IMG/VR virus record: IMGVR_UViG_3300044796_000394
Reading direction: 5' to 3' (one strand)
DNA from: a virus
Taxonomy: Duplodnaviria; Heunggongvirae; Uroviricota; Caudoviricetes
DNA: 64,000 nucleotides
Shown one piece after another: positions 17,604-48,014 of this stretch; position 1 is the stretch's first letter; the number at the start of each line of letters is the position of its first letter. Position numbers and translations under genes: made by a program. The notes under the pieces are model-generated. The model searched no databases. It saw only the letters and a list, made by a program, of their open reading frames with translations, and was not told the origin of the DNA.

Positions 17604-18461
17604 TTAACCAATAAAATCAGAAATTCTACTCAAGACTTCTTTCCAATTACCCAATTCTTTTTGTCGCCATATTTTCATGGTGGGATACCAAATACTGTCA
17701 CCGGAACCCCATCGCCAATCATGCTGATAAGCCAAAGCCAAATGTACTGTTTTTCCCATCGCTGCTGCCAAATGAGCAACAGCCGTATCAACACTGACTA
17801 CAGTATGACATTCCGCTATCAGTTTGGCTGTATCATTCAAGTCTGCCAACATTAGAGAATAATCTTCGAATCTTAAGTCGGATTGTGTGACCATTAAACT
17901 TGTTAATTTTCTTCCATCCTTAACTAATAAACTAAAATCTTCTGCTGAGGATGACCTGATGCTGTCATCGGCGTGACCTGCAAATCCTGTCCATGCCACA
18001 CCAATTCTCCCTTGGTCGTTATTGGGAATGTTAATGTACTGTTCGTTGATGATTGTTTTGAAGTGAGCGGGTAAACTGGAAACTGGAATTACAAAGTTGC
18101 AATTCGGCAAAGCATCACCACGAACTATTACGTCATAACCTTGGTTTTTCATCAAGTGAAACAGTTCAGGTGCAACTTCCAATACGACATTTGACATTAA
18201 GTCTGTATATCGTACCCACATGATAAAATCGCCGAAACCTTGATCTTGGTAAACGAGAACTTTTCCTTGTTCACCTTTCCATGTTGGCATCGGGTAATGA
18301 CTTCGTCTGTTAATTGTTGAGCGATGACCTTTGAGTCGCCATTCCAATTCAGGCCACGCTTCTTGCCATCTTCCCAAATAACCCAATACACATCCATATC
18401 GCCAATGAAGTTCGGCATCATTAGGGTTTTTGAAAATTTGATCTTCGAGATCTTTGAGCAT
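17604..18461 (-). CDS. GT9-family ADP-heptose-dependent heptosyltransferase-like glycosyltransferase
   Basis: VLVYQDQGFGDFIMWVRY (GDxx N-terminal GT9 block) and VSVDTAVAHLAAAMGKTVHLAL (the C-terminal DSGxxHLAAA block of WaaC/WaaF). Confidence 0.6.
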   Translation of the reverse strand: MLKDLEDQIFKNPNDAELHWRYGCVLGYLGRWQEAWPELEWRLKGHRSTINRRSHYPMPTWKGEQGKVLVYQDQGFGDFIMWVRYTDLMSNVVLEVAPELFHLMKNQGYDVIVRGDALPNCNFVIPVSSLPAHFKTIINEQYINIPNNDQGRIGVAWTGFAGHADDSIRSSSAEDFSLLVKDGRKLTSLMVTQSDLRFEDYSLMLADLNDTAKLIAECHTVVSVDTAVAHLAAAMGKTVHLALAYQHDWRWGSGDSIWYPTMKIWRQKELGNWKEVLSRISDFIG

Positions 18462-19003
18462 TAACTATTTTTTTTACGAGTGGGCTTGTAATGAATAATA
18501 GCGTCCGAATCTGGGTATTTATTTTGCCATCCCATGCTGGCGTACCAAGCCTTCAATTTTTGTGTACTTAGTCCTTTGGGCGGCTTTTGGCCTTTAACTT
18601 TAGCGGGCGTTATTTCTTGGGGTTCGGCAACTAAAGTTATTCCCAATTTATTTGCGACACTTTGCAACCATTTCAGAGATGATGTTGCCAATCCTTTGCC
18701 ACGTGCTTCTGGCTTAACAATAATTGCGGCAACTGTTAATTGTTTTGATTGCTTTGGGTCATATCCGGCAACCATTACCCTATTCTGATAAAGGTATAGG
18801 TCGTATTCTGATAATGCAATCTTCACATTTCCGTCTGGACTAACGATTGTAGGGTAATTTGTGCCACCCAATGAGACGACTTCGGGATTAGTACCCGGAA
18901 TTAATCGATTAGATGGTGCTTCCCACCGCCAACCTTGTTTTTCAATTTCAGAACGCAAACTGACAAATGGGTGTGCGGCTTCAATGAATAATCTAAAACT
19001 CAT
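18461..19003 (-). CDS. GNAT N-acetyltransferase
   Basis: PEARGKGLATSSLKWL (motif A, R/Q-x-x-G-x-G/A). Confidence 0.55.
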   Translation of the reverse strand: MSFRLFIEAAHPFVSLRSEIEKQGWRWEAPSNRLIPGTNPEVVSLGGTNYPTIVSPDGNVKIALSEYDLYLYQNRVMVAGYDPKQSKQLTVAAIIVKPEARGKGLATSSLKWLQSVANKLGITLVAEPQEITPAKVKGQKPPKGLSTQKLKAWYASMGWQNKYPDSDAIIHYKPTRKKNS

Positions 19004-19142
19004 CTTCTATATATTGCTCGTAAAAATTAACTTTTACTTCAAGTTCCATCAAAAAGACGGATAAAAATTTTTTGGTCGAGACTAACTATTACGTTATCTA
19101 TAAAGTGAGGGTAGTACCATTCCGATTTTATCCACTGATCTT

Positions 19143-45265: not shown

Positions 45266-45862
45266 ATGTTAAAATATATTGGTTTTGGTGGACAATATCG
45301 TTCGGGAAAAGACGCTGCTTCTGATCATTTATATGCTCGTTTGAGTGGAAAATGGAAACGTGCCTCGTTGGGTCATGCCGTCAAAAAGATTTTCGCTGAA
45401 CACTTTAACGTAAGTATGGAATTTATTGAGGAATGGAAAGTCAAAGAAGAAGTGCCGCCCGGATTCAATTGCCCTTTGCGAGATGGGTTAATTAAAATTG
45501 GGGATGGCTGGCGGGACACCAAGGCTGATATTTGGATTAGAAAATTATTCGATAACAATAAAGATAATTTGATTATCTCAGATGTTCGTTATATTAATGA
45601 AGCTGAGCATGTTCGTAATAACAATGGTATTATGAATTTGGTTTGGCGACCGGGATATGAAAACAAAAAACCATCACGATCAGAACAAGAATTGATGCAA
45701 TTTGTCAAAAGGCTTCAAAAAGAGCCAAGCGGTCGTATTGATCATGAAAAATATCCTGACGTTCCTTTTGACTTCTGGTTAGTTAATGATGGAAATTATA
45801 GGGATTGGCTGGAAAAGGTTGATAACATCGTATTGCCATATGCTCTTAAAAGGTTAAGTTAA
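45266..45862 (+). CDS. deoxynucleoside monophosphate kinase (T4 gp1-like)
   Basis: GFGGQYRSGKDAAS P-loop resembling T4 dNMP kinase GVKRSGKDT. About 200 aa. Confidence 0.6.
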   Translation: MLKYIGFGGQYRSGKDAASDHLYARLSGKWKRASLGHAVKKIFAEHFNVSMEFIEEWKVKEEVPPGFNCPLRDGLIKIGDGWRDTKADIWIRKLFDNNKDNLIISDVRYINEAEHVRNNNGIMNLVWRPGYENKKPSRSEQELMQFVKRLQKEPSGRIDHEKYPDVPFDFWLVNDGNYRDWLEKVDNIVLPYALKRLS

Positions 45863-46608
45863 TGCATTTCGTTATAAGAAACAAAGATTTTATTTTCACA
45901 GAAACCGTATTGCCGGGCGATGATGTTCTTACATCCAATGGCGGTAAGGTATTTCAAGATTACATCCAAGAAACTAAAGTTTTATGTGGGCCTTACTCTG
46001 AATGTAAATTTCCACAAAGTTACTTCGGCAACATCCGACCTTGGGATTACGAGCGGATTTTAGAATACGGGGACTTCGCTGCCAATCAAAAGGTTTTAGA
46101 ATGCGGTGGGCTTCATAGCTATTTCGCTATTGCCACTTCCCAAAAAGTTAATCATTACACTTGTACTGATAGTTTTTATTGGGCGACTCGTGACTATGCT
46201 CAAAATCCACAATTACAAAGTCCTCAAGAGTGGTGTAAGTATTTGATTGGTAAAGGTCGTGGCAAACTTCACGCCGAAGAAGCCGACTTGCAATCCATGA
46301 AGTATGCCAACGAACAATTTGATAGAGTTGTCTGTATCAGTGTGATTGAGCATGTACACGAAGATCGCAAGGGTATTCTGGAAATGATGAGGGTTCTTAA
46401 GCCGGGCGGTTTATTGCTTTTGACAACTGAATACAATCCCACTTGGTCTAAGCCTTACGCTGAAACAGACGGCAGTTATTATCGTGTATATGATCAAAGT
46501 GACTTGAGTAATCTTTTGGCTGGTCTTGATGTTGAAGTAATGCAAGCCCAAGGTGGGGATGTTCGTGACGGGCAATTTACTACTACGTTCATACGGATCA
46601 GAAAATGA
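45862..46608 (+). CDS. class-I SAM-dependent methyltransferase
   Basis: VLECGGLHSY (motif I), DRVVCISVIEHV, LKPGGLLLLT (Methyltransf_11 pattern). Confidence 0.65.
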   Translation: MHFVIRNKDFIFTETVLPGDDVLTSNGGKVFQDYIQETKVLCGPYSECKFPQSYFGNIRPWDYERILEYGDFAANQKVLECGGLHSYFAIATSQKVNHYTCTDSFYWATRDYAQNPQLQSPQEWCKYLIGKGRGKLHAEEADLQSMKYANEQFDRVVCISVIEHVHEDRKGILEMMRVLKPGGLLLLTTEYNPTWSKPYAETDGSYYRVYDQSDLSNLLAGLDVEVMQAQGGDVRDGQFTTTFIRIRK

Positions 46609-48014
46609 ATGTATCTGACATCATTAATAAGTTCAAAATTCAAAATGCCAAAACGAGACTGAGAATAGCAGTTATTGGTGATACGCTCGTTGATGAATAC
46701 CGTTACGGCCAAGTCAACCGGATTTCGCCCGAATTTCCCGTTCCGATATTAACTTCCGAGTCAGACGCCAAGGAATCTTGTCCCGGTGGCGCTGCGAATG
46801 TATGCCATCAAATGACACACATGAACGCCGAAGTCTTTCTCGTAGGCTTTGTGGACAATGTCACACGTAAATTGTACGGTCAGCAAACCTTCAATATTGA
46901 CTACTGCGTTGATTTGCCAAGCGGCTTTGTACCAATCAAAGTTCGATTTTATGAAGGCGACTTTCCTCTCCTGCGATGGGATATTGAAAGTCCTAACTAT
47001 GGCGAAAAAGATTTAAGTGAATTGAGACGAAAAATTCTCATTAATTTTGAATCTCTCATCAAAGAGGGATTGAGTGCGGTCATTATTAGTGATTATAATA
47101 AAGGCATCTTTGACGAAGCTACCGCTCGTTCTCTCATGCAATTATGTACTTATTACCGCATTCCTACTATCGTTGATCCCAAGAAACCACCAGTGAGCAA
47201 ATGGTTCGGGGCTACAGTCATTAAGCCAAATGCGGCTGAAGCCAAGACGCTAACTGGTGAATCTACTATTTCATCTCAATTGAGTAAATTATGTGAAAAT
47301 GCTCATACGAGTATGATCACCCAAGGCGGCGACGGTGTTATTTGCCAAATTGGAAAAGAAATTTTTGAATACATGTCCCCCGTACCACGATCTAAGGAGG
47401 TGAACAGTGTTATCGGGGCGGGGGACTGTTTTATAGCAATGTTAACTCTTGGGATGTCGCACGGTATGACAACTCAAGAAGCTGTAGCATTGGCATTTGA
47501 AGCCGGTGCTGTTTACGTTAAAGCAAGACATAATAAACCAATTCATCTTAATGAAATACTCGCAAGAGTTGATGTTGAAGGCTCTCGTATCGTCAAAGCC
47601 GAAGAGTTAAACTTTAACAAAAACGAACGTATTGTTTTCACAAATGGTTGTTTTGACGTTATTCATGCTGGTCACTTGGATACTTTGAAATTTGCCAAAT
47701 GTCAAGGTGATCGATTGATTGTCGGTGTTAATTCGGATGCTTCTGTCAAGCGACTTAAGGGTGATAAGCGACCCATTTATGGACAAGATGAACGTGCTAG
47801 ATTTTTAGCGTCAATGTATTTCGTAGATCATGTTGTGATTTTTGATGAAGATACACCAGCCGAATTGATTAATAAAATTCAGCCACACATTGTTGTTAAG
47901 GGCGGCGATTACTCTATTACGGATGTTGTTGCCGGTAATGCCAAAGTTGTTTTGTCGCCTCTCAGAAAAGGATACTCTTCAACTAATACAATTAATAAAC
48001 TATCTGACGACTAA
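46605..48014 (+). CDS. hldE: bifunctional D-beta-D-heptose 7-phosphate kinase / heptose 1-phosphate adenylyltransferase
   Basis: N-terminal pfkB/ribokinase-like domain (IAVIGDTLVDEY, GGAANV, GAGD). C-terminal cytidylyltransferase domain (VFTNGCFDVIHAGH, RLIVGVNSD). Confidence 0.8.
   Translation: MNVSDIINKFKIQNAKTRLRIAVIGDTLVDEYRYGQVNRISPEFPVPILTSESDAKESCPGGAANVCHQMTHMNAEVFLVGFVDNVTRKLYGQQTFNIDYCVDLPSGFVPIKVRFYEGDFPLLRWDIESPNYGEKDLSELRRKILINFESLIKEGLSAVIISDYNKGIFDEATARSLMQLCTYYRIPTIVDPKKPPVSKWFGATVIKPNAAEAKTLTGESTISSQLSKLCENAHTSMITQGGDGVICQIGKEIFEYMSPVPRSKEVNSVIGAGDCFIAMLTLGMSHGMTTQEAVALAFEAGAVYVKARHNKPIHLNEILARVDVEGSRIVKAEELNFNKNERIVFTNGCFDVIHAGHLDTLKFAKCQGDRLIVGVNSDASVKRLKGDKRPIYGQDERARFLASMYFVDHVVIFDEDTPAELINKIQPHIVVKGGDYSITDVVAGNAKVVLSPLRKGYSSTNTINKLSDD

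Follow-up and report, generated by a model that had tools for sequence, protein, structure and literature searches.

A megaphage HldE-type enzyme and a compact GT-B glycosyltransferase: ADP-heptose as leading candidate donor for a possibly protein-directed enzyme

Introduction

Why would a phage encode both an HldE-type enzyme of ADP-heptose synthesis and a GT9-like glycosyltransferase (GT), and which acceptor would receive the sugar? Both genes lie in the 64,000-nucleotide stretch of viral DNA analyzed here (the window; IMG/VR record IMGVR_UViG_3300044796_000394). A sequence-only reading had proposed that the GT O-heptosylates the poly-Ser tracts of four phage proteins using HldE-made ADP-heptose. 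What that reading observed was partly confirmed, and its interpretation was partly supported.

Results and Discussion

The window and its relatives

Among the genes of the window are those for a large terminase and a Gp23-like capsid protein; HldE and the GT are both genuine, phage-encoded genes. An identical GT protein is carried by a 614,480-bp contig, and the source is a megaphage of roughly 614 kb; HldE and the GT, separated by 28 kb in the window, do not form one compact locus. The relatives drawn on were L001, L002, LR756511 (complete), L164, L165, L180, and L181, together with the unrelated virus MH319737; each GT-bearing relative was examined over about 20 kb or less. The closest of them, L001, keeps both genes.

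HldE and its operon

The gene at 46605–48014 (plus strand, 469 aa) encodes an HldE-type bifunctional heptose-7-phosphate kinase / heptose-1-phosphate adenylyltransferase with a PfkB and a CTP_transf_like (cytidylyltransferase-like) domain, a domain content and order shared with HldE/RfaE. The proposed full-length enzyme was borne out, as the NCBIfam HldE model NF008454 matched it end to end (residues 18–466, E = 1.3e-86), although its 291 bits lie below the curated equivalog cut-off of 521 bits. The rfaE domain I and domain II models gave 180 and 160 bits, respectively, also below their curated cut-offs, phrog_7878 was matched as well, and the top PDB sequence matches were 5x9q (HldC, heptose-1-P adenylyltransferase) and 4e84 (HldA, heptose-7-P kinase). 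Aligned with Salmonella RfaE, the protein shows about 33% identity across 96% of its length, and it contains the HxGH and GAGD motifs. Phage-encoded rfaE/HldE has been reported before and is not new; in the rfaE-like genes of cyano- and pelagimyophages, however, the two domains are split into separate genes, whereas here they are fused. No GmhA, GmhB, or HldD turned up in a scan of about 47 proteins of the window, so that of the suggested ADP-heptose synthesis only the two HldE steps stand.

In contrast to the LPS core cluster of bacterial HldE/RfaE, the phage gene lies amid nucleotide-metabolism genes. Its operon starts with a P-loop NMP-kinase-fold protein (45263–45862, plus strand, 199 aa), which matched P-mevalo_kinase weakly (31.7 bits, threshold 33.8) and DNMK weakly, and whose sole PDB match, a marginal one, was phosphomevalonate kinase. 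A SAM-dependent methyltransferase follows (45862–46608, plus strand, 248 aa; Methyltransf_11/23/25 matches), sharing 1 nt with the kinase gene before it and 4 nt with HldE after it, in each case at start or stop codons. L001 has no methyltransferase at this place; there the kinase orthologue (58% identical) overlaps HldE directly. A second operon diverges across a 127-bp gap (45136–45263), where promoter-like sites occur on both strands without enrichment relative to shuffled sequence. Its first gene encodes a 134-aa protein (44732–45136, minus strand) with homologues in L001, LR756511, and L165.

Orthologues of HldE with 40–45% identity were found in L001, LR756511, L164, and L165, and across the clade the gene adjoins ThyA or ThyX-like genes (the latter named on sequence grounds alone), together with NMNAT-like and NMP-kinase-like genes. 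This setting bears on the idea that the HldE product glycosylates modified DNA bases, as UDP-arabinose does in RB69 and DLP3. In known phage DNA-glycosylation clusters (PMC13326640), GT-B transferases occur together with a phosphatase, a nucleotide kinase, and a bifunctional kinase/nucleotidyltransferase, and in both the window and L001 translation of the NMP-kinase-fold gene is coupled to that of HldE. Nevertheless, a thymidylate-synthase homologue was not found in the window, the ThyA beside HldE in LR756511 has the canonical D169/N177 and not a hydroxymethylase or 5hoC synthase signature, and the context of the GT family, described below, is one of TPR and flagellin. DNA hypermodification is thus a very improbable role.

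A compact GT-B glycosyltransferase

The GT (17604–18461, minus strand, 285 aa) is a compact GT-B enzyme of a TPR-associated, GT9-like family. About 55 aa of TPR-like helices are followed by a short, acidic N-domain (pI 4.8) and a C-domain with a D-T-x-x-x-H motif. The predicted fold (GT-B, pLDDT 95) is closest to the structures of WaaF, WaaC, and TibC. Residues G75, G77, D78, D225, T226, and H230 are invariant, the last three aligning to D261, T262, and H266 of WaaC. The protein therefore carries the fold and the catalytic motifs of ADP-heptose-using enzymes, and at the level of fold and C-terminal motif the label of a GT9 heptosyltransferase holds. It does not extend to the WaaC and WaaF equivalog models, which gave 24 bits against a cut-off of 185, and the GT was rejected as a canonical LPS heptosyltransferase on these grounds. 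Compared with WaaC/WaaF (CAZy GT9), only about 30 residues are recognizable at the sequence level, and the GT differs in its N-terminal TPR-like cap, its short acidic acceptor domain, and the lack of an LPS gene context. The assignment to the TibC/AAH type (BAHT family, autotransporter O-heptosyltransferases) had to be abandoned: there was no match at the sequence level, these enzymes have about 400 aa, their Cys4 iron-finger is missing in the GT, whose three Cys are scattered, and no autotransporter substrate gene is adjacent.

Upstream of the GT lies a GNAT-like acetyltransferase gene (18461–19003, minus strand, 180 aa; weak Acetyltransf_1/7 matches), whose last base, 18461, is the first base of the GT start codon; no counterpart of this gene precedes the GT orthologues of L001 or L002. 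Directly downstream, an ORF encodes a Cys-containing protein (17364–17594, minus strand, 76 aa), and a homologue with 39% identity occupies the same position in L001.

These features also bear on host-envelope remodelling, in which HldE would feed or maintain the ADP-heptose pool and the GT would add heptose to the LPS core or a surface glycan. Cyano- and pelagimyophages repeatedly carry rfaE/HldE and glycosyltransferases as "LPS-related" auxiliary genes (PMC7029224), and the neighbourhood of the GT orthologues in L180 and L181 includes a cluster of a nucleotidyltransferase-aminotransferase fusion, a LicD-type glycan-decoration gene, and an ATP-grasp enzyme. On the other hand, the GT scores far below the WaaC and WaaF models, its N-domain is truncated and, being acidic, fits anionic Kdo2-lipid A poorly, no membrane or lipid-carrier genes were found near it, and its family is TPR-fused and flagellin-linked rather than placed in LPS core clusters. 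We consider envelope remodelling unlikely.

The GT family is TPR-fused and partly flagellin-linked

The 86 sequence homologues of the GT are mostly fused to TPR domains, and the family extends to at least 600 stretches among bacterial species representatives, while viral contigs contain 346; the phage GT is a short, almost TPR-free form of this large family. Most bacterial contexts were uninformative. However, 7 of 80 bacterial loci, representing several phyla, have Pfam-confirmed flagellin genes directly adjoining the family member, accompanied by FlbT, FliD, and FliS; among these 7 are the fourth and fifth closest bacterial matches. The TPR fusion together with the flagellin adjacency favours a protein-directed family, but is silent on heptose. 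As CDP-sugar genes lie beside one flagellin-linked member, donors within the family probably vary.

A similar architecture is known from FlmG of Caulobacter, a soluble flagellin O-glycosyltransferase with an N-terminal TPR and a C-terminal GT-B part, whose GT domain by itself neither binds nor modifies flagellin (PMC7591256). The bacterial relatives of the GT share this TPR + GT-B arrangement, a likeness at the level of architecture. In the phage GT, the array is reduced to about one and a half TPR-like hairpins; this loss of the TPR array, set beside the inactivity of the isolated FlmG domain on flagellin, speaks against a protein-directed phage enzyme. Furthermore, the FlmG class uses CMP-pseudaminic or CMP-legionaminic acid, and the window contains no flagellin gene.

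Do HldE and the GT belong together?

In L001, HldE and the GT lie within 10 kb of each other. The same holds for MH319737, an unrelated marine virus, where their island also includes an epimerase, a nucleotidyltransferase, a kinase, and a HAD phosphatase. Elsewhere, 79 of 80 other viral loci of the GT family, and likewise 79 of 80 bacterial ones, had no HldE within 8–10 kb. The distance of 28 kb in the window, this rarity, and the different gene cluster near the GT orthologues of L180 and L181 count against a donor supplied by HldE. LR756511, L164, and L165 conserve HldE with no GT orthologue nearby; LR756511 has a different, weak GT9-like candidate, so HldE may be paired with a GT9-fold enzyme more than once.

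The two genes might therefore be functionally unrelated, HldE being a stand-alone nucleotide-sugar auxiliary gene and the GT using another donor, e.g., a CMP-nonulosonate, CDP, or UDP sugar. The spacing, the clade-wide placement of HldE among nucleotide-metabolism genes, the CDP-sugar genes, and the CMP-Pse donor of FlmG all agree with this. Conversely, all characterized enzymes with the nearest fold take ADP-heptose as donor, the GT has kept the sugar-diphosphate-binding motif, HldE and the GT are co-localized in two independent viral lineages, and the candidate in LR756511 may again point to pairing. We regard functional independence as a serious contender, somewhat short of even odds. As to the acceptor it overlaps with our best explanation; the donor alone differs.

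The Ser tracts are lineage-specific

Ser tracts in four proteins had been reported, and all four were found. Two are Pro-rich, paralogous orphans on the minus strand, one with an S10 tract (44042–44332, 96 aa, ending HSSSSSSSSSSG) and one with S6 and S7 tracts (44355–44732, 125 aa, 38% Pro, pI 10, ending HSSSSSSDSSSSSSS). They align at W-P, PDF, and PTHxVxHSSS motifs, and their shared ending PTH(K/V)V(I/S)HSSS had been described correctly. The gene at 44355–44732 overlaps the upstream gene by 1 nt (TAATG) and has an AAGGA ribosome-binding-like site. The third protein (20898–22397, minus strand, 499 aa) has a Pro/Gly-rich N-terminal half, 15 Cys in its C-terminal half, and an S5 tract in its ending GSSSSSY. 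Its description as collagen-like was not upheld, as it contains only GPKGGPKGGPKGG and had no Pfam match. The fourth (55458–55706, minus strand, 82 aa) is acidic with an internal S13 tract.

The five Ser runs of at least five residues compare with 0.018 expected in 19,377 aa, far above chance, and no other residue forms runs as long. Also consistent with poly-Ser O-heptosylation are the mixed Ser codons of the two paralogues, which suggest selection at the protein level, the divergence of their operon from that of HldE, the contrast between the basic Pro-rich proteins and the acidic acceptor domain of the GT, and the rank of TibC among the top structural matches. Moreover, the complete LR756511 lacks both a GT orthologue and any Ser run of at least five in 177,688 aa.

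Against this, none of the Ser-tract proteins had detectable homologues in the databases searched; for the 499-aa protein, 1.8 billion representatives yielded one marginal match and IMG/VR yielded no match. In L001, an unrelated gene takes the place of the Pro-rich pair, although HldE, the kinase gene, the 134-aa gene, and the GT are all kept, and the LR756511 gene at the position equivalent to 55458–55706 is unrelated as well. No credible poly-Ser ORF was found in about 97 kb from six relatives, and the ORFs around the 80 viral GT-family loci plus L001 contain only 3 Ser runs of at least five in 323,000 aa. In addition, two of the tracts consist in part of period-3 microsatellites, HldE is kept where the GT is missing, and the GT lacks the iron-finger of TibC. 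As orphans absent from the examined sequence of relatives, the Ser-tailed proteins are linked to the GT by their shared genome only; they are improbable acceptors, and the proposed poly-Ser O-heptosylation is equally improbable.

At the DNA level, the Ser codons of 44355–44732 partly form an (AGT)n array, and a perfect (TCC)n microsatellite at 55534–55556 encodes most of the S13 tract; these are the only period-3 tandem arrays of the window. Judged from their sequences, the Ser-tailed proteins are lineage-specific and appear to have grown partly by microsatellite expansion. The tracts would then be low-complexity tails or linkers that arose by trinucleotide slippage in fast-evolving orphans, free of glycosylation. 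The lack of homologues and the absence of the tracts from relatives agree with such an origin, while the recurrence of the same residue in four independent genes, the mixed codons, the motif conserved ahead of the tail, and the retention of the reading frame do not. On balance we find such an origin, unconnected with glycosylation, somewhat more likely than not.

Proposed function

Our best overall reading, to which we assign a probability of roughly 0.4, is that of a soluble, probably protein-directed GT whose foremost candidate donor is ADP-heptose. ADP-heptose made by the phage HldE is likewise the leading candidate for the donor taken separately, though at slightly less than an even chance. 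By homology, HldE would phosphorylate D-glycero-D-manno-heptose-7-P and adenylylate heptose-1-P, whereas the host, or phage genes beyond the window, would have to supply GmhA (isomerase) and GmhB (phosphatase) activity. In the GT, predicted to be catalytically intact, D78 would act as catalytic base and D225-T226-x-x-x-H230 would grip the sugar diphosphate as in WaaC.

Mycobacteriophages glycosylate their virions with phage-encoded glycosyltransferases. The concept that a phage may glycosylate its structural proteins is shared; the transferase families and donors differ from those considered here. A Gp23-type major capsid gene lies a few kb from the family member in 14 of 80 viral loci, and a virion protein as acceptor found no support in this analysis. 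Were heptose, against our expectation, placed on the host envelope, receptor masking or the exclusion of superinfecting phages would result. In the reading that we prefer, the GT would act in the cytoplasm of the infected cell and move a nucleotide-activated sugar, possibly heptose, to Ser or Thr residues in an acceptor protein.

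Genome setting and overall result

The best-supported description of this phage is that it encodes a clade-conserved HldE, a soluble glycosyltransferase (GT) without a tetratricopeptide-type (TPR) array, and lineage-specific Ser-tract proteins. The secure part is that both enzymes are real and that GT belongs to a TPR- and flagellin-associated family, not to the LPS or TibC-type heptosyltransferases. All ORFs used by the sequence-only reading were found in place. Its observation, ADP-heptose synthesis and a heptosyltransferase beside Ser-tailed proteins, was largely correct, while its interpretation, O-heptosylation of those proteins, survives only in weakened form as an attractive hypothesis. 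The window is of phage origin: its large terminase (49763–51427) shares 42% identity with the one encoded by the 595-kb uncultured huge phage LR756511, a Gp23-like capsid protein is encoded at 29409–30359, and a 614,480-bp metagenomic contig carries a protein (P0001) identical to GT.

At least ten window proteins start with a common N-terminal motif of the type M-x-F-K/R-x-W/F-L/I/M-E, such as MNFKLWLE, MKFKSWIAE, MDFKLWLE, MMNFKEWLK, MKRFKMWIE and MTFREWLK (ORFs at 16003, 22449–23420, 19960 with an internal start, 39689, 39810–40184, 23417–23599, 48022, 61021–61548, 15327–15497 and 61548–61778). The motif also occurs in relatives (in LR756511, MDFREFFL and MTLGFRQFVELEK), and may serve as a shared signal for targeting or packaging or mark a related N-terminal domain family. 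A 33-bp tandem repeat (63468–63539; 2.2 copies, 92% match) lies within the ORF at 63282–63974.

Fold and class of the glycosyltransferase

GT (17604–18461, minus strand, 285 aa) had been read as a GT9 heptosyltransferase. The Pfam GT9 profile (PF01075) matched residues 207–238 only, that is 32 of 247 profile positions (28 bits, threshold 22), and GT failed the WaaC/WaaF equivalog models (TIGR02193, 24 bits vs. 185; NF008204, 20 vs. 437). A PDB sequence search with the single protein returned nothing; a profile of the full family alignment was swamped by TPR matches and, rerun with the catalytic part only, recovered just the C-terminal motif of WaaC. In the AF2 model, based on 39 homologues (pLDDT 95, pTM 0.93), TPR-like helices account for about 55 residues, alongside a short N-domain of Rossmann-like type and a C-domain. 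Its GT-B fold was closest to WaaC and WaaF, and chains of the autotransporter heptosyltransferase TibC ranked first in Foldseek (E = 4.5e-5). Residues D78, D225, T226 and H230 were invariant in family alignments of 39 and 14 sequences, as was G75-x-G77-D78; D225, T226 and H230 aligned with D261, T262 and H266 of WaaC (the D-T-G-x-x-H donor-binding motif), and D78, in the N-terminal G-D motif, presumably corresponds to the catalytic D13 of WaaC. From the modeled fold, the TibC match and the invariant residues, GT looks catalytically competent with a GT9-type fold. The GT9 assignment was thus borne out for fold and catalytic motifs, but not by a family-wide sequence match or by the WaaC/WaaF models.

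The proposed likeness to TibC/AAH did not extend beyond structure. While these enzymes carry a Cys4 iron-finger in a subunit of about 400 aa that forms dodecamers and adjoin an autotransporter substrate gene, GT has 285 aa and only three scattered cysteines (C24, C120, C218), with no C-terminal Cys cluster, and its neighbors are a GNAT-like gene, a 76-aa ORF and an amidoligase-like gene. Remodeling of host LPS or surface glycans is a serious rival. The N-domain, which would hold the acceptor, is about 95 aa long with a pI of 4.8; such a short acidic domain is unlike that expected for binding anionic lipid A-Kdo, and the GT neighborhood is not an LPS cluster, although both points bear only indirectly on the acceptor. 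Literature searches turned up neither a characterized TPR-GT9 enzyme nor a described phage heptosyltransferase.

A possible second transferase is encoded at 53583–54449 (288 aa), with a homologue in LR756511; it had no matches in Pfam, PHROGs or PDB, and its single-sequence AF2 model reached a pLDDT of 36. The window further encodes two Amidoligase_2-like proteins, a class-I glutamine amidotransferase/peptidase C26 fragment and an AstE/AspA-like protein (3589–4635, 16003–17367, 11021–11488 and 747–1451), a set that suggests a peptide- or amide-ligation system; one of the amidoligases abuts the GT operon. In the closest phage relative (L001, 9183–10004) and in the contig of the GT homologue P0006 (9196–10017), a 273-aa ORF lies directly upstream of the GT orthologue and overlaps it. 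This ORF aligns at 52% identity with the large terminase of the window, over the latter's N-terminal half, and gives a weak Terminase_6N match, which points to a terminase gene that was split or duplicated in these relatives.

A TPR-GT family linked to flagellins

Homologues of GT were found in 346 stretches in IMG/VR and in at least 600 stretches in bacterial species representatives from many phyla, and overwhelmingly combine an N-terminal TPR array with a C-terminal GT domain. The window GT and its closest phage orthologues (P0002–P0009, 271–309 aa) are versions from which the array was lost. Clustering of the neighbors in 80 bacterial loci returned only paralogous TPR-GT proteins and flagellins as recurrent partners. 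One or two Pfam-confirmed flagellin genes lay directly beside the family member in seven of the 80 loci (L087, L088, L112, L121, L136, L148 and L150), two of which hold the fourth and fifth closest bacterial matches to the phage GT; none adjoins GT in the phage window. These seven loci also hold FlbT, FliD, FliS, other TPR-GTs and methyltransferases, while the bacterial contexts of the homologues P0022 and P0024 were uninformative.

In architecture and context, the bacterial members match FlmG, the soluble TPR and GT-B flagellin O-glycosyltransferase of Caulobacter, which uses CMP-pseudaminic acid as donor and whose isolated GT domain can neither bind nor modify flagellin (PMC7591256). Donors of the FlmG class are CMP-Pse or CMP-Leg. 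The C-terminal GT-B catalytic domain of this class is also present in the phage GT; however, where FlmG has an N-terminal acceptor-binding TPR array and the bacterial homologues have long ones, the phage enzyme has only the 55 or so residues of TPR-like helices. By analogy, the FlmG-like architecture and the flagellin context argue that the family acts on proteins. For the phage GT, the acceptor is most likely a protein, and ADP-heptose is the leading, though unproven, candidate for the donor.

In 14 of 80 viral loci (L031, L034, L047, L050, L055, L059, L062, L068, L071, L072, L075–L077 and L079), two conserved, paired ORFs of unknown type, about 195 and 260 aa long, flank the TPR-GT9 gene; the longer one is rich in Pro, Thr and Ser. 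Eleven of these 14 also have a Gp23-type major capsid gene a few kb away, and this proximity may reflect a link with capsid modification.

HldE and its operon

HldE (46605–48014, plus strand, 469 aa) consists of a PfkB kinase domain and, C-terminal to it, a cytidylyltransferase-like one. The kinase domain is of the rfaE domain I type (PF00294, E = 4e-18; TIGR02198, E = 6.6e-53 over residues 17–319, at 180 bits below the cut-off of 345) and matched the heptose-7-P kinase HldA in the PDB (4e84, E = 4e-19). The C-terminal domain is of the rfaE domain II type (PF01467, E = 4.5e-16; TIGR02199, 159.7 bits, cut-off 181.5), and FTNGxFDxxHxGH, including the HxGH motif, was conserved in the alignment to HldC (5x9q). 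The best solved sequence relatives were HldA and the Burkholderia heptose-1-P adenylyltransferase HldC. The NCBIfam HldE model NF008454 covered residues 18–466 (E = 1.3e-86), with 291 bits against a curated equivalog cut-off of 521; both rfaE domain models likewise scored below theirs. With its score under the NF008454 cut-off, the phage protein is a divergent family member, for which we infer a heptose function without regarding it as assured.

The gene comes third in a compact operon, after those for an NMP-kinase-fold protein (45263–45862) and a SAM methyltransferase (45862–46608), and the start and stop codons of these genes overlap. GmhA, GmhB and HldD were not among the approximately 47 window proteins scanned (no SIS, HAD or epimerase matches in 64 kb of a genome of about 614 kb). 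Of the ADP-heptose synthesis that had been proposed, the window therefore encodes two of the needed steps. Phage-borne rfaE/HldE genes are already known: 42 GenBank phage records matched, mostly cyanomyophages, in which the two domains are separate genes and not one fused gene as in the window, and rfaE is listed among the LPS-related auxiliary genes of pelagimyophages (PMC7029224).

An NAD-pathway role for the C-domain, prompted by nearby NAPRTase, isochorismatase and NUDIX genes, was rejected because both domains score far better with rfaE-specific models than with ribokinase or NMNAT-type models. The NAD-salvage-like genes scattered around HldE (42351–43547, 43557–44045, 60259–60864 and 61021–61548) are of NAPRTase (E = 3e-58), nucleoside 2-deoxyribosyltransferase-like, isochorismatase/nicotinamidase-like and NUDIX hydrolase types, and the gene directly upstream of HldE in LR756511 is NMNAT-like. 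A Cys-rich, metallothionein-like small ORF immediately downstream of HldE on the opposite strand in two relatives (L082, 21396–21608; L164, 11307–11645) is absent from the window.

Does HldE work with the glycosyltransferase?

A functional link between HldE and GT falls a little short of an even chance. To our knowledge, ADP-heptose is the donor of all characterized enzymes of the nearest fold. L001, whose GT and HldE are 49 and 45% identical to those of the window, has both genes 9 kb apart. MH319737, an unrelated marine virus, has kinase and nucleotidyltransferase as separate genes at a distance of 10 kb from a TPR-GT9 gene, in an island to which genes for an epimerase, a HAD phosphatase and a cupin also belong. 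That the two enzymes are functionally fully independent is nevertheless a serious rival. They are encoded 28 kb apart in the window, HldE occurred within 8–10 kb of a family member in a single one of 80 bacterial loci and in none of 80 from IMG/VR, and in LR756511, L164 and L165 it is conserved beside ThyA/ThyX-like, NMNAT-like or kinase genes without a GT orthologue. CDP-sugar genes adjoin one flagellin-linked bacterial member, and the GT orthologues of the relative loci L180 and L181 have near them, instead of HldE, a cluster for a fusion of nucleotidyltransferase and aminotransferase together with LicD and an ATP-grasp enzyme.

This cluster (L180, 1552–3942; L181, 825–6198) lies within about 7–9 kb of the GT orthologues (44 and 41% identity) and comprises a fused NTP_transferase and aminotransferase protein of 563–568 aa, one or two LicD genes and the ATP-grasp gene; we take it to resemble clusters for CMP-aminoethylphosphonate or phosphocholine decoration. 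A role in DNA hypermodification was considered and rejected, and DNA glycosylation is unlikely: the ThyA that adjoins HldE in LR756511 is of the canonical type, and no TS homologue turned up in the window.

LR756511 also encodes a very weak, different GT9-like candidate of 334 aa (550042–551046; L177:42–1046, minus strand; GT family HMM, E = 3e-5; Pfam GT9, E = 0.008, below threshold). Its sequence contains the motifs GIGD and VVTVDTSNFH, and its C-terminus is rich in Cys (CGPC...C...C). The ORF adjoins a Volactin (actin-like) gene and is possibly a second, very divergent GT9- or TibC-like enzyme in an HldE-bearing relative. As a lead only, the candidate hints that a pairing of HldE with some GT9-fold enzyme may recur.

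Ser-tract proteins as candidate acceptors

The Ser tracts are real and far beyond chance, with five runs of at least five Ser in 19,377 aa against 0.018 expected. The two Pro-rich paralogues (44355–44732, 125 aa; 44042–44332, 96 aa) contain 38 and 28% Pro, have a pI of about 10, and appear to be genuine genes. A TAATG overlap joins the start of the first to a conserved upstream 134-aa gene, both have AAGGA ribosome-binding-like sites, and the proteins have W-P, PDF and PTHxVxHSSS motifs in common, with mixed Ser codons. Their operon and that of HldE run in opposite directions from a common 127-bp gap. The only period-3 tandem arrays in the window were the (TCC)n of the S13 tract (55458–55706) and the (AGT)n of one tail. 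The 499-aa protein at 20898–22397, previously called collagen-like, has no extended G-X-Y tract, only GPKGGPKGGPKGGGG, and no Pfam match.

For the 125-aa and 499-aa proteins, no homologue was recovered from a word-indexed database of 5.8 billion, a full HMMER search, queried with the C-terminal 300 aa, of 1.8 billion representatives, or IMG/VR; even the query itself was missed, and low complexity and candidate caps may have hidden such self-matches. None of the four Ser-tract proteins matched PHROG families or the relative loci compared. In L001, HldE, the kinase gene and the 134-aa gene are arranged as in the window, followed by an unrelated gene in place of the Pro-rich pair. About 97 kb from six relatives contained no credible poly-Ser ORF, and the ORFs of the 80 viral GT loci and L001 held three Ser runs of at least five in 323,000 aa. 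The complete LR756511 genome has neither such a run (177,688 aa) nor an orthologue of GT, which fits the idea of Ser tails as acceptor, as a single data point. All that ties the Ser-tract proteins to GT or HldE is a shared genome; comparison with relatives gave no support for a link to GT.

Two further window proteins are unusual phage cargo: a cysteine-dioxygenase-like cupin (49322–49762) with a C-terminus likewise rich in Ser (DSSSDSGS), and a protein of the sulfatase family (35565–36734, E = 3e-33).

Implications

A self-contained, cytoplasmic protein O-heptosylation, in which HldE would make ADP-heptose and the TPR-less GT, as a compact member of a family resembling flagellin glycosyltransferases, would heptosylate the Ser tails of the phage-specific Pro-rich proteins, is improbable, at roughly 7%. 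If true, it would define a new class of phage glycoproteins. If GT heptosylates proteins at all, it would be the first phage-encoded protein heptosyltransferase, and would give a concrete role to phage rfaE/HldE genes now loosely labeled "LPS-related". It would also offer a minimal, TPR-less model for a very large uncharacterized family, present in at least 600 bacterial species and on 346 viral contigs, whose linkage to flagellins suggests widespread soluble protein O-glycosylation.
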